From Octopus vulgaris (taxonomy: Eukaryota), in assembly GCA_951406725.2 (NCBI GenBank), contig OX597831.1:67270001-67334000 (forward strand): a stretch of DNA of 64,000 bases. Direction: 5' to 3'. Every line of letters begins with the position of its first letter. Position 1 is the stretch's first letter. A program made the translations under genes and the position numbers. Positions 27,022 to 58,396 of this stretch are shown here, one piece after another. The notes beneath the pieces are model-generated. The model was given only the letters and a program-made list of their open reading frames with translations, made no database searches and was not told where the DNA came from.

Positions 27022-27583
27022 ATATGTTACATTACTCGGTAGTCAAGATAAAACTCTGAGTTTCAGATGCCGAAGTGGAACTATTTGAAAACGTTATGAA
27101 AATATACCGTTAAAAATGAAGGGAAATTACTCTGTTATAACTCTGCTTTGCCTGCGTACTTATACATCGCTCGCATTTTTCGTCATAAAAATTATATAAA
27201 AATACATAAAAATATATAAAAATATATAAATATATATAAAATCTTCTTGGGACATAACACAGAAAGCATGTTCTATCCGTTTTCTTTAGAAAACGGATAG
27301 AACATGCTTTCTGTGTTATGTCCCAAGAAGATTTTATATATTTTTATATATTTTTATATATTTTTATGTATTTTTATATAATTTTTATGACGAAAAATGC
27401 GAGCGATGTATAAGTACGCAGGCAAAGCAGAGTTATAACAGAGTAATTTCCCTTCATTTTTAACGGTATTTTTTCATAACGTTTTCAAATAGCCAGATAA
27501 CCGAAGAGATGGTGTTGTGGATTTCCACTTCGGCATCTGAAACTCAGAGTTTTATCTTGACTACCGAGTAATGTAACATATTG
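27020..27583. repeat. ~565-bp near-perfect palindrome (inverted Penelope pLTR-like pair)
   Basis: Centre at ~27286; arms match except a ~30-nt segment (27493-27523) present only in the right arm. Confidence 0.92.
27495..27557 (+). ncRNA. Type I hammerhead ribozyme (U4C core variant)
   Basis: AGATAA-CCGAAGA-GATG..CATC-t-GAAA-CTCAGAG-TT-TTATCT. Confidence 0.68.
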
Positions 27584-29639: not shown

Positions 29640-29656
29640 TATATATATATATATAT

Positions 29657-29942
29657 CACCGTCACCGTGACCGACCAGGCCAGCAGATGTTGCTACAAAT
29701 CGCTGGTCACAATGCGCTTCGCACTGTTTTAGTCTTCAAATGACGCCATCCCGCAGGCTAAGCGAGCAGGCCTACAGAAGAAAGAGTGAGAGAAAGTTGT
29801 GGCGAAAGAGTACAGTAGGGATCGCCACCCTCCCTGTCGAAGCCTCGTGGAGCTGTAGGTGTTTTTGCTCAATAAACACTCACATCTCCTGATCTGGGAA
29901 TCGAAACCGCCATCCACTGCCTTAACCACTGGACCATTGCGC

Positions 29943-29944
<2 letters not shown>
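29657..29944 (-). mobile_element. Third tRNA-derived SINE family
   Basis: Minus strand GGCGCAATGGTCCAGTGGTTAAGGC..GGTTTCGATTCCC (A and B boxes); partial copy at 23925-23967. Confidence 0.72.
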
Positions 29945-30030
<86 letters not shown>

Positions 30031-30034
<4 letters not shown>

Positions 30035-30491
30035 CAATATTTCTAACTTTGGTGATCAGTGAATAGATTTCACTGAAAATATATATATATGCGAAGCCTT
30101 GGCAAACATCTCAACTAGCAGGCCTTGCTACCCTAGACTGATGACGAGCAAGACTCAGAAACATGCATGTCTCTAGGTGCAGGCCCTAGCTAGTGAGGGT
30201 GTTTGTGTCCCCTTCGCAATATAAGGACACAGGAAATGTGTCAAAGCCAACAGGAAGCGTCGATGCTTCCTAGGGCTAAATAGCGGTGGTGTGATTCCCT
30301 TTACGGGACTGTCACGTTATGTTGACAGTATAAAACCACTCTATCGCTCCACCACCGCTCATGTCTCTCTGAGACATTTAGAAATTCAATATTTCTAATT
30401 TTGATGATCAGTGAATAGATTTCACTGAAAATATATATATATTTGCGAAGCCTTGGCAAACATCTCAACTAGCAGGCCTTGCTACCCTAGA
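30031..30491 (+). mobile_element. Retrozyme-like tandem unit (352-nt monomer plus ~109-nt partial repeat)
   Basis: Direct repeat 30031-30137 / 30383-30491; one hammerhead and many hairpins in the monomer. Confidence 0.8.
30132..30177 (+). ncRNA. Type I hammerhead ribozyme
   Basis: CCTAGA-CTGATGA-c-GAG-caaga-CTC-a-GAAA-CATGCATG-TC-TCTAGG; 6-bp stem I; 10-nt palindrome ACATGCATGT; GUC site. Confidence 0.88.
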
Positions 30492-31315
30492 ATGTCACGT
30501 GCGTTTTGGTTTTTCTGAGTTGACTTTCTGATATTGTGAGTACAGAAAATTGTTATTGTTGAAAGTACTATTGTGGTTGAATTTTTGAAAATTGTTTTCT
30601 AGCTACCCACTGTGGGTATGCAAACACTAAATTACGCGCAGGCTTCAGTCAAAAGTTTTTCTGCCGACATGTTGCAGTTGAAAGAGATACTAATTAAGAA
30701 GGAAAATTTGGAAAAATATTTTGAAACTTTCACGAAGGAGGGAGATTGCCTGCGAATCACACCGCCGGAGGAAGATGCAGAAAAAGCGAGCAGAAAAATT
30801 ATCGTATACTAAACATGGAATATAGCCACCAAAAAAATAGAAGTGGCTGAAACAGACGACATTGAGGAATGTCTAACAGAAATAAAAGACAGAACTACCT
30901 TCTACACAAGAGGAAGGAAGTTCGCCACCGTAGAAGTACGGTTTGAAAGTGAGAAGGAAGCCAAAAACCACGCTACTACGATATTGAGAACAGCTAGGTG
31001 GATACTTCTACCTACCTATTGTGGGAAACGAGCAGCGAAGGTGAAAATAGGAAAGGTACCACCGGAGATCGAAGTAGAGAGGCTTGTAACAGCTATAATT
31101 TACAATTGTAAAGAGGGGATAGATATCCTCAAGGTTGAAAAATCAAGAGACGTTAACTGGTGGGGTTATGGTGTGGAAGCACTGATACATATAACCCTGC
31201 CGGATTTACACCACATTGCAGAAGAGTTGGTGCTCACCGACGAAACCCGACTGAGGGGAGACCACCAATATGTTATAAATGTAAAAGAAGGGGACATATG
31301 CAGGCAAAGTGTCCC

Positions 31316-31319
<4 letters not shown>
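30492..31319 (+). mobile_element. L1/Tx1-like ORF1 (gag-like) pseudogene fragment
   Basis: Broken ORFs 30612-31319; CCHC knuckle [14 protein letters not shown] after a frameshift; truncated at (TA)n. Confidence 0.65.
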
Positions 31320-31625: not shown

Positions 31626-32172
31626 CAGAAGAAAAATATGTGTATATGTGAGTATGTGTTTTTACGTTGTTGTTCACACAGGGCCGTCGCGTGACTTTTA
31701 GAGGCCCCATCTCTTCAATCAAAATTCATAATCTACGCACCTTTTATTCATAGCTATGTTTTACTTTATTCTATCTGAAGTTCAATATTTCACGTTATCC
31801 CAAAGAACATCTTTAAAAATACAATAAATTAAATTTATTTAGGGCTGGAACTATCGTATCATTTCATGTTTAGGAAGACTAATATTTAACAGGGTTGAAT
31901 ATTTATTCGATGGACTCACAAATATCAGAAGACAAGTATCTTAAAATAACAACTGTGGAGTATAGTTGTCTCAGCTTTTTATGCAAAGAATTTTATTCAA
32001 GAACATCAAAAAAATACGAAACACTTACAGTCCAAGACTAAAGCAAACTATTTCAAATTATATATTTTTGAAAGAATAGATGTGAATGTTCTCAAAGATT
32101 TGATAACATTCGAAAAAGCCTTTTTTTAAAATTCTATATTTCACTGTTACCTGTTGTAATATTTCGATTGGA

Positions 32173-32964: not shown

Positions 32965-33450
32965 TGAACCGATTTCATTACGCAATAAGGAAAAGCAAAA
33001 GAAAACTCCAGCTAAGTCACAAGTATTTACTCACAATCAACTTTTATTTCCTGTCATACAAGTGTTCAATGCAACACGGGCAACAGAAGTGCGGTAAGAG
33101 AATTCCTCCTAGACGCGTATCAGCATATCAAAAGCAAGTTCATTATGGAACTAAAGAATAAATTTGCTTTGCTTGAGACGATTCCAGAAGATATTGACAT
33201 AGAAGGAAAATGGAAAATCATCGATAAAGCATTCAACCAGACAAAGAAATACTCAGTGGATCGTGACATGCTGATACGCGTCAGAGAGGAATTTTCTTAT
33301 CGCATTGATGTTGCTCGTGCTGCAGATGGGGGTGGCCACATTTGAACACTTGTAAGACAGAAAATAAAAGTTGATTGTGAGTAAATACTTGTGACTTAGC
33401 TGGAGTTTTCTATTGCTTTTCCTTATTAAAATATTGCGTAATGAAATCAG
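32965..33450. mobile_element. Tc1/mariner relic with ~100-bp inverted arms
   Basis: Arms ~32965-33071 and ~33339-33450; internal peptide DMLIRVREEFSYRIDVARAADGGGHI resembles an IS630-Tc1-mariner transposase C-terminus. Confidence 0.6.
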
Positions 33451-40811: not shown

Positions 40812-40846
40812 GTTTCTGACGAAGAGCTCCGCTCGAAACGTTAAAC
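40812..40846 (+). ncRNA. Minimal type I hammerhead ribozyme (family B)
   Basis: GTTT-CTGACGA-A-GAGC-tcc-GCTC-GAAA-CGTT-AAAC; identical copy at 50406-50440. Confidence 0.85.
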
Positions 40847-54379: not shown

Positions 54380-55005
54380 CTCTATTTATGAGATGAGGAA
54401 TTGTATACATTATTCACATTATTTATATTTGACGTATATTTGTTCTCATCTTATTTGTTCTTAACACAACGTTTCGGCTGATATACCCTCCAGGCTTCAT
54501 CAGATGTTTTGGGGAAATTTCGAACCTGGGTTCTCATTCCTAAGGTATTTATTTGATGTTGTTATTATTACTATTATTAAGGTCACTGCCTGGAATCGAA
54601 CTAGGAATCTTCTGGAGGATATATCAGCCGAAACGTTGTGTTAACAACAAAAAAGATGAGGACAAATATCCGTCAAATAGAAATAATGTAAATAATGTAA
54701 ATAATGTAAATAATGTACATAATTCCTCATCTCTTAAATATAGAAATGTATTATCTAATCGGTACGGAACCGACATTAGACTTCAACGGAGACATATAGA
54801 GAAACTCCATCAAAAACTAAAGATTCCGAGTTCGATTCCAGACAGGGACCTTAATTATAATAATAACAACATCAAAAAAATACCTTAGGAATGAGAAACC
54901 AGGTTCGAAATTTCCCCAAGACACCTGATGAAGGCTGGAGGGTATATCAGCCGAAACGTTGTGAAGGTGAGGACAAATATCCGTCAAACATAAATAATGT
55001 AAATA

Positions 55006-55010
<5 letters not shown>
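54376..55010. mobile_element. Inverted plus tandem array of a hammerhead element with a tRNA T-arm-like segment (family A-HHR)
   Basis: Ribozymes at 54463-54508 (-), 54614-54642 (+, partial) and 54921-54963 (+); GAGTTCGATTCC at 54828-54839. Confidence 0.8.
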
Positions 55011-56385: not shown

Positions 56386-56679
56386 GCATGCATGCCTGCA
56401 TGCATAAATACATATATATTCATTATATATATATATGCACATACACATGCATAAACGTTTATATTTGTACATACTATGAATGTATGTTTGTACTTTTGAA
56501 TGTATATACGGATACGCCACCCGTGTATGAGTAACCGGAGTTGAATCACTCCGAAAATAGATGTCTGTGATAGTCTCTATGGCATTATCTCTTAAAGTAT
56601 TACATATAATCCTACAACAACAAGCCATAGATAAAATATAAAGGAATCATTCATTTGAAATTTAAAGAATGTCTCTTAC

Positions 56680-58396
56680 CGTTTCCGTATGCTAGATCAA
56701 TTTTCTTTTGTCTGTTTTCCATGTGGGGCAAAATATTATTTTCCCAACCTGTGGAATTAGTCGCAGGCAGCTTGTCTCGATCTCCAAACTCTTTTTTAAT
56801 TAGAGTTATAGGTGGAAGCAGAAAATTGTCATTGGTGTGTATATTTTTGATAACATTAAATGAAATTGTTCGTCTTTTGTTTTCCTCATCTACGTTGTTT
56901 TCATCATTATTGCGTGATGAGACTGTCGTATTTGTTTTGTTATTAACGTTGCTTTTGTTGCTCTGAGAATAGCAGCTGTTGTTGAAATTTATGCTGTTAG
57001 CGGTGTTGTTGATATCTATAATGTTGTTTGTTGATGGAGTAGGAGTTGTGGTCGTGGCTGTGGTCGTTGAGGTAGTGCTACTGATGTGATATGTTTTGCT
57101 ATCTTTGACATCGATCGTATGTGTTGTAATTATACTAATGGTGTTGTTATTGCTAGTAGAAATATTTTTTAAAACACCAGCAGTAGTTGCTGTGGTAGGG
57201 AATGAAGTAGTAGCATTGGTAACAGTGGTGTCATCTTGTGAAGTCTTACTGAAAGCCAACAACGATTCACGATGTGTGTCGTCTGCTAATATTTTAACGC
57301 CATTTAATACCGTCGGTTCCTGTGATTGCTGCTGTTGTTGACTCTGACAGTTCTCCTGATGGTGATAATGTCGATGTTGTTGTTCACGATGAAGATGGTG
57401 GTGTTGATGATGATGTTTGTGGTGACGATGTCTCTCAAGAAACTGGATGCTGGTATTAACTTCTTCTTTCACATGTATTGGAATTTCCTCTTTGGCGTAA
57501 CTGTTTTCATTTCTTTCCCCCTTTTTGTATTTTACTTCTGGTTCTGTTATTTGTTCTTCTTTTTCTTTTTCTTCCTCCTCCTCTTCCTCTTCCTCTTCAT
57601 CATCCTCCTCTTCTTCTTCATCTTCTTCTTCATCTTCTTCTTCTTCTTCTCCCCCTCCTCCTCCCTCTCCTTCATTTTCTTCTGTTTCACCTTTATGGCT
57701 TTGCTTGCTTTCATCATCTCCGTCTGTATTCTCGCTACCCTCATCATCGTTATCATTGTCGTTACCATCGAAATCGTTCGCTAAATCTAATTGGTCCTCA
57801 GCATCGGATTGAGATAAAACTTCGACATCTTGTTTGTGTTCTTTTTCTTCATGCTCTTCCCCTTCTCTACTCGAGAGACTAGTCTCTCGATTATAACTGT
57901 CATTTGAATATAAATAATGGAATTTCTGCTGGTGATACAAGAGCTCTTCCGACTGTTTATGAAGCTCATAGATTTGTTGAAACTTTTGATGATGATTTTG
58001 CACTTGGTCATCGTGATGGTGATTCCTATGTTGTTCTTGCAGTTTTTGTTGTTGCTGCTGTAGTTGTTGCTGGTGATGTAGTTGTGGTTGTAGATATAGC
58101 TGTTGCTGGTAATGACTGTGATGGAATTGCTGTTGTTGCTGTTGCTGCCGTCGACGGTATTGTAGTGGCTGTTGGTGTTGCTGCTGTAGATGCCGTACTT
58201 CACGATGATAAAACTTATGTTGCTGACTAACTGAAAGACTTTTAGACCATAGCGTCGGTCTATTAACACTGACTGCATCTGTATAAACAAGCGTTCGTCT
58301 GTCTGAACGTAGTGGTCCCTTCTGTGTTGACAATTTGTCTGACGTCTTCTGACATGTCCGCCTCAAGATATTTTCTATGGAAAATGGCGTCAGCAT
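56680..58396 (-). CDS. First coding exon of an eh1-motif transcriptional repressor, probably NK/ANTP-class homeobox (e.g. NK3/bagpipe- or Lbx-like); DNA-binding exon not in window
   Basis: 1.7-kb open frame; in-frame TAA two codons before the ATG; N-terminal MLTPFSIENIL matches eh1 (FSIxxIL); poly-Q/H, poly-E/D and T/N tracts; phase-1 donor AACG|GTAAGA at 56680/56679. Confidence 0.8.

Follow-up and report, generated by a model that had tools for sequence, protein, structure and literature searches.

The 64 kb stretch of Octopus vulgaris DNA analyzed here, referred to as the window, is microsatellite-rich animal DNA in which one short segment, 30031-30491, carries both a direct repeat and a hammerhead motif. 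What kind of element this segment represents, and what sort of RNA could have given rise to a copy that is longer than one repeat unit, are the questions raised by the locus. A BLAST-type comparison within the window aligned 30031-30137 with 30383-30491, with 105 of 109 columns identical and a 2-nt gap. The initial annotation had described a 352-nt period; the repetition is real, the spacing being 352 nt ahead of an internal TA run and 354 nt past it. No further copy of the repeat was found in the window by BLAST or motif search, and an apparent second copy at 31777/32128 (15 nt, spacing 351) was discarded as a chance match, both searches having found nothing there. The locus and its immediate surroundings comprise the following parts.

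29945-30031, no strand assigned: (AC)n(AT)n microsatellite that borders the locus on the left, recognized by its repeat content.
30031-30491, plus strand: 1.3-mer of a retrozyme-type unit of 352-354 nt, consisting of a full period and a 107-109-nt overlap, from a high-copy family.
30031-30137, plus strand: first partial copy, defined by repeat alignment, whose end is the 5' strand of hammerhead helix I.
30383-30491, plus strand: second partial copy, defined by sequence and repeat alignment, which halts exactly ahead of the CUGAUGA core.
30132-30177, plus strand: type I hammerhead, from sequence, fold and descriptor, with a predicted cut after C30171.
30083-30223, plus strand: long arm, interrupted in places, that continues helix I and ends in the hammerhead, from the fold, with variants checked against the pairing.
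30218-30430, plus strand: multibranched body with hairpins at 30226-42, 30245-77, 30282-359, 30361-77, 30378-98 and 30408-28; the deepest-covered part of the family.
30492-31318, plus strand: relic of a LINE-like element, with a leader of ca. 125 nt, a gag/ORF1-like frame from 30618 and a CCHC knuckle at its (TA)n end.

The explanation that we consider probable is that 30031-30491 is a solo, dispersed copy of 1.3 units from an abundant Octopus family of non-LTR retrozyme type, derived from circular or multimeric RNA. A retrozyme had already been proposed in the initial annotation, and this part of the proposal is in keeping with the hammerhead layout, the unit size, the non-coding and self-pairing character of the unit, its copy number and the existence of a permuted copy longer than the unit; it is weakened by the presence of a single core at this locus.

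The hammerhead was inspected letter by letter. Helix I comprises 6 bp, with 30132-37 paired to 30172-77, and the core letters CUGAUGA (30138-44), GAAA (30158-61) and GUC (30169-71) are all intact. Helix III consists of two pairs beyond A15.1-U16.1 and is closed by a palindromic tetraloop. Helix II is reduced to only 3 pairs with a 5-nt loop, because C30145 and A30157, at position 10.1/11.1, are mismatched. The canonical core announced earlier for 30132-30177 was thus found in place in a type I layout, but the C.A mismatch that shortens helix II had been missed. A full type I descriptor matched once in the window, both strands included, against a mean of 0.0 in 100 Markov resamples, and three Rfam searches of the sequence detected no hammerhead, either at gathering level or at E<=10. 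The architecture is that described for the "canonical" metazoan hammerhead, with a 6-bp helix I, a short helix III and a palindromic loop (PMC4209133), and the two pairs plus tetraloop of helix III match the form given for invertebrate retrozymes (PMC7229834). The same source describes an axolotl element, Amex2 (350 bp), whose helix III likewise has two pairs and a tetraloop and whose helix II is also mismatched at its base, U.U in Amex2 versus C.A in Octopus; monomeric cleavage of the Amex2 motif is given as 22% per hour, and cleavage as a dimer is better. Position 10.1/11.1 is presented as the second most conserved pair of the hammerhead consensus, and a natural U.U mismatch exists there (PMC3088659). 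Among predicted Xenopus retrozyme dimers, one of nine was reported to cleave in vitro (Li et al. 2026, bioRxiv 10.64898/2026.07.22.740005). The motif at 30132-30177 is a putative ribozyme of uncertain activity.

The whole period is predicted to fold into one closed structure, with an energy of -134.9 kcal/mol and a z-score of -8.95, and none of 100 shuffled sequences folded as well. Folded as a circle, the form postulated in the initial annotation, the unit is indeed strongly self-paired (-133.3 kcal/mol, z -8.0, 62.5% of bases paired), and both strands are similarly stable as circles (-133.3 and -131.3 kcal/mol). Of 64 control windows, each shuffled 8 times, 5 score z<=-8 as well, and these lie at microsatellites or inverted repeats; such a z-score is thus not unique in the Octopus genome and needs the hammerhead motif beside it. 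Five hairpins listed earlier with coordinates form as claimed when excised, but two of the listed hairpins, TGTGTCC/GGACACA and TAGCA/TGCTA, have a pair probability of about 0 in the circular unit and were rejected as features of the circle; what displaces them is a long arm, overlooked at first, that takes up the same bases and in which 30172-30223 pairs with 30438-30491. In the monomer model helices II and III have pair probabilities below 0.01, and the active hammerhead fold is less stable than the minimum by 5.9 kcal/mol, tertiary contacts being left out of the calculation. When two cores were folded together as a dimer, the palindromes paired and the core stayed misfolded, which lends no support to an active dimer.

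Comparison with known systems places the unit among metazoan non-LTR retrozymes. The traits listed for these elements in PMC7229834, namely a canonical type I hammerhead, lack of coding capacity, a GC content below 50%, self-pairing with an arm on helix I and a very high copy number, are shared by the Octopus unit, in which the longest ATG ORF around the circle has 15 or 21 codons, GC is 0.438 (44%), and no match to a pol III B-box pattern was found. Its 352-354 nt lie inside the retrozyme range of ca. 150-450 bp and match in size the retrozymes of the mussel Mytilus, for which 350-390 bp and about 5000 hammerheads are given (PMC7229834). The Octopus family differs from known non-LTR retrozymes in its cephalopod host and in being represented here by a 1.3-mer with one core. 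Solo or "monomer" retrozymes of vertebrates are likewise dispersed single copies, described as non-transposing offspring (Li, Clavereau and Pollet 2026, bioRxiv 10.64898/2026.07.22.740005); that survey covered 35 genomes (31 vertebrates, 3 insects and 1 anthozoan), with no mollusc among them. With one core only, 30031-30491 falls outside what Li et al. 2026 call an active retrozyme. The family is regarded as a probable new member of the non-LTR retrozymes, with 30031-30491 as a solo, non-active copy.

The abundance of the family was assessed in sequencing runs. Part of the stretch is contained in 20 of the 24 runs listed, which come from 9 studies and carry 4 organism labels, none of them being listed as RNA, and depth was analyzed in four of them (X1, X2, X10 and X11) by alignment over 30138-31318 at >=85% likeness, 76% of run X1 being read. 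In X1 and X2, both presumed to be DNA runs, summed depth at the centre of the unit peaked at 365,044 and 1,021,692, respectively, while contigs matching the 30031-30491 locus itself had depths of 23-30 and 50-62. Summed depth is not a copy number and serves here as an order of magnitude only; read in this way, it points to some 10^4 copies of the unit and thus to a very abundant repeat, the depth being about 10^4 times that of a single locus in both presumed-DNA runs. Contigs of the family were also present in X10 and X11, guessed to be RNA runs. These were set aside as evidence of expression, their depth profile following that of the DNA runs and their contigs carrying no strand, end or circle information. 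On the stretch contigs are shorter than the unit and no tandem array was seen; the go-back joint 30491>30138 does not count as evidence for tandems or circles, the locus's own first partial copy yielding the same joint. A short TA-rich site at the foot of the arm, 30218-30221, is where many contigs of the family stop or change strand; it may be a preferred point of truncation or insertion, or a module boundary.

The layout of the locus constrains the template from which it was copied. The 1.3-mer exceeds one unit and crosses the predicted cleavage site, and its two ends fall 211 and 320 nt inside the unit. Because of this, a cleaved linear monomer cannot have been the template, whereas a circle or a multimer can. 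A structured circular RNA, as put forward in the initial annotation, would be a suitable template, and multimeric RNA or the shortening of a longer array would give an identical pattern. As an alternative, the 1.3-mer could be the remnant of a longer array, and its right end meets the LINE-like relic; or it may have inserted whole beside the microsatellite, the flank starting with AT. The (AC)n(AT)n microsatellite at 29945-30031 is its probable integration target. No target-site duplication, which in retrozymes exceeds 4 bp when present, is visible next to the 1.3-mer, whose left flank is microsatellite. Since the second partial copy halts exactly before the CUGAUGA core, the 1.3-mer has no second hammerhead; with one core only it could be cut once at most, and the locus is unable to release a monomer or yield a circle.

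Retrozyme multimers are described as self-cleaving, with the monomers ligated into circles and copied by a borrowed reverse transcriptase (RT) into cDNA of greater than unit length (PMC7229834, PMC7761336), such cDNA being a prediction for retrozymes in PMC7761336. Transferred to Octopus, the cycle would begin with transcription of loci carrying two or more hammerheads. Each hammerhead would cut after GUC, either as a monomer stabilized by tertiary contacts or as a dimer formed through the palindromic helix III, freeing a monomer of ca. 353 nt that a host ligase would close into a branched circle. A borrowed RT, most likely Penelope-like, would then travel round the circle more than once, giving cDNA that would integrate at (TA)n. 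For the Octopus family, cleavage, ligation, circles and the mobilizing partner are all postulated by analogy with known retrozymes. Penelope-like elements make up 6.83% of the O. vulgaris genome according to the supplement of PMC13282606, and hammerheads of the Penelope type occur elsewhere in the window.

A closer relation to Penelope-like elements has also to be weighed, namely that the unit is the remnant of the pseudo-LTR (pLTR) of such an element or a non-autonomous Penelope derivative, copied from linear, partially tandem RNA without a circular stage. Partial tandems and inverted truncated copies are given as typical of these elements (bioRxiv 2021.04.23.441226), and opposite-strand joints were seen at 30218 in X1, X2 and X11. 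The same preprint describes a clade, Naiad, that prefers (TA)n targets and occurs in Octopus, albeit without hammerheads, and Li et al. 2026 trace retrozymes to pLTRs (bioRxiv 10.64898/2026.07.22.740005). Penelope hammerheads resemble the Octopus motif in being of type I, residing in a retroelement and probably acting as dimers, but those of metazoans are usually minimal, combining a helix II of 7-8 bp with a short helix I and, as a rule, lacking helix III (Cervera and de la Pena 2014, PMC4209133), whereas the motif at 30132-30177 is canonical. Moreover, the adjoining ORF is gag/ORF1-like and not the RT plus GIY-YIG frame of a Penelope element, and the full period folds as one closed structure. 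A Penelope derivative is accordingly held to be unlikely, and the retrozyme-type solo copy is preferred.

Hammerheads of the minimal type are found in other parts of the window. At 54380-55010 there are two with a long helix II, at 54925 on the plus strand and 54503 on the minus strand, about 420 nt apart, and a third remnant without a core lies near 54610-54740; an opposite-strand pair of this kind is as described for truncated Penelope elements (PMC4209133). Two near-identical minimal hammerhead-like motifs, at 40816 and 50410 (both plus strand), belong to a second repeat family.

The position of the LINE-like relic directly against the second partial copy raises the possibility of a mechanistic tie between the two. 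The gag/ORF1-like frame (30618-31318) contains one stop and one frameshift, and its CCHC knuckle comes last, directly ahead of (TA)n. It has 315 relatives at E<=0.001, of which ten were examined and nine were named, all nine from Octopus, and zf-CCHC was detected in 2 of 11 relatives scanned. Pfam gave no match for any of three queries (two ORF pieces and P0001), and none of 576 candidates from a word-based search was a longer homologue. Neighbours in the Atlas were CCHC and RRM/ZCCHC3-like, all below 0.9 and hence leads only. From the order of its domains the frame would be a LINE ORF1, possibly of the L1/Tx1 type, the clade not being established. The relic is probably not part of the retrozyme. 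To its left the block 30031-31318 (1.29 kb) starts at the microsatellite, next to which, at 29656-29944, lies a repeat judged by eye to be SINE-like.

It seems very unlikely that the unit is tied to this element, either by target-specific insertion, in which a LINE (possibly Tx1-type) would insert between helix I and the core, be co-transcribed with the repeat and be freed by the upstream hammerhead, or by an RT that would switch template from the LINE 5' end onto retrozyme circles and so mobilize them. Such a link would connect a LINE directly with a retrozyme, in place of the Penelope partner assumed at present. It would explain that the second copy ends exactly at the boundary between helix I and the core, and that an ORF1 with an intact N-terminus lies ca. 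125 nt further on in the same orientation; many Tx1-clade elements are described as specifically targeting multicopy RNA genes, other transposons or microsatellites (PMC4494074). However, the junction between the repeat and the LINE-like relic was spanned by one X2 contig, at a depth of 62, which is the single-locus level. Depth over the relic reached 189-340 only from 30538 on, and therefore related LINE copies lack this junction at >=85% likeness. In addition, the block is bounded by (TA)n at both ends and the right flank of the repeat begins with AT, so that shared targeting of microsatellites accounts for the adjacency. The open clade assignment, the lack of an RT at the locus and Atlas matches under 0.9 also argue against the link.

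The family contigs bear on a further alternative, in which the unit is a DNA-level satellite or SINE-like repeat, its hammerhead a dead relic and the 1.3-mer a local duplication or the remainder of an array. This we regard as highly improbable, even though the C.A mismatch and the weak helices would fit it, as would the altered core or helix II letters seen in some family contigs, which are as expected of decayed copies. The steep fall in depth away from the body of the unit would fit it too: depth in X1 and X2 was 2,542 and 32,525 in the hammerhead bin, and 580 and 3,324, and 1,424 and 2,793, in the arm bins, only about 0.1-3% of peak depth at >=85% likeness. Part of this shortfall stems from divergence of copies: inspected by eye, the loose ends listed ahead of 30218 (X1 and X2) are still recognizable as homologues of the arm, 7 and 6 of 29 nt being different. 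A mixed set of loose ends ahead of 30219, agreeing at 0.54-0.6, points to truncation of copies. At >=85% likeness, the hammerhead may be carried by only part of the family.

Several observations point away from a dead relic. The core bin was deeper than the adjoining arm bin in all four runs. Contig 9 of X10, which covers 30138-30244, has 7 changed letters, and 7 changes are listed at the same depth within 30186-30215; because all seven are thereby accounted for, its core, the C.A mismatch included, is that of the present copy, unchanged while the arm beside it has 7 changes in 30 nt. Among the 40 differences listed of a total of 174, ten fall within the unit and none within 30138-30185. Seven listed variants have an opposite base in the register of the arm: three create Watson-Crick pairing where the present copy is mismatched (30196, 30207 and 30451), two keep the pair as a wobble (30192 and 30215), one is still unpaired (30195), and one, at 30202, breaks a pair unless its partner changes too. 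Arm variants thus mostly keep or gain pairs, although changes in the partner are invisible in these data and pair-keeping does not equal true covariation. The few visible variants spare the hammerhead core and mostly keep the arm pairing. Besides, axolotl Amex2 naturally has U.U at this position and is active (PMC7229834). The literature searched contains no description of the unit as a SINE.

That the locus is an endogenized viroid-like infectious RNA with RNA-to-RNA replication is barely conceivable, and the "viroid-like" label of the initial annotation was dropped: size, branched fold and the similar stability of both strands would suit it, but the minus strand has no hammerhead core and no CUGANGA, whereas Avsunviroidae-like RNAs are described with hammerheads in both polarities, the sequence is a very high-copy genomic repeat, and exact-pattern scans found no match in viral contigs. 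Scans of metagenome contigs and prokaryote genomes gave none either.

Other features of the window were recorded in passing. A near-perfect inverted repeat at 27081-27492 has 205-nt arms that are 99% complementary and separated by a 2-nt spacer, and a MITE-like pair of 86-nt inverted repeats (97%) lies 272 nt apart at 32984-33427. An ORF of 581 codons at 56651-58396 (minus strand), of low complexity (poly-Q, H, E and T) and without a Pfam match, starts with what we take to be an eh1-like repressor motif. It is probably exon 1 of a homeobox gene; no homeodomain motif was found within the 64 kb of the window.

No report of an octopus or cephalopod retrozyme was found in the literature searched, and the main text and supplement of the 2026 repeat annotation of O. 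vulgaris make no mention of ribozymes or retrozymes (PMC13282606); a claim to priority in cephalopods would be tentative. Elements of this kind and the proposed cycle have already been described, and the gain is taxonomic and modest. If the reading as a retrozyme-type copy is true, cephalopods would join the known hosts of non-LTR retrozymes, and the octopus family would number some 10^4 copies as an order of magnitude. The C.A at the base of helix II, common to at least some other copies, would then be a natural hammerhead variant. If the family is expressed like that of mussels, octopus tissues would contain an abundant circular RNA that has been overlooked.
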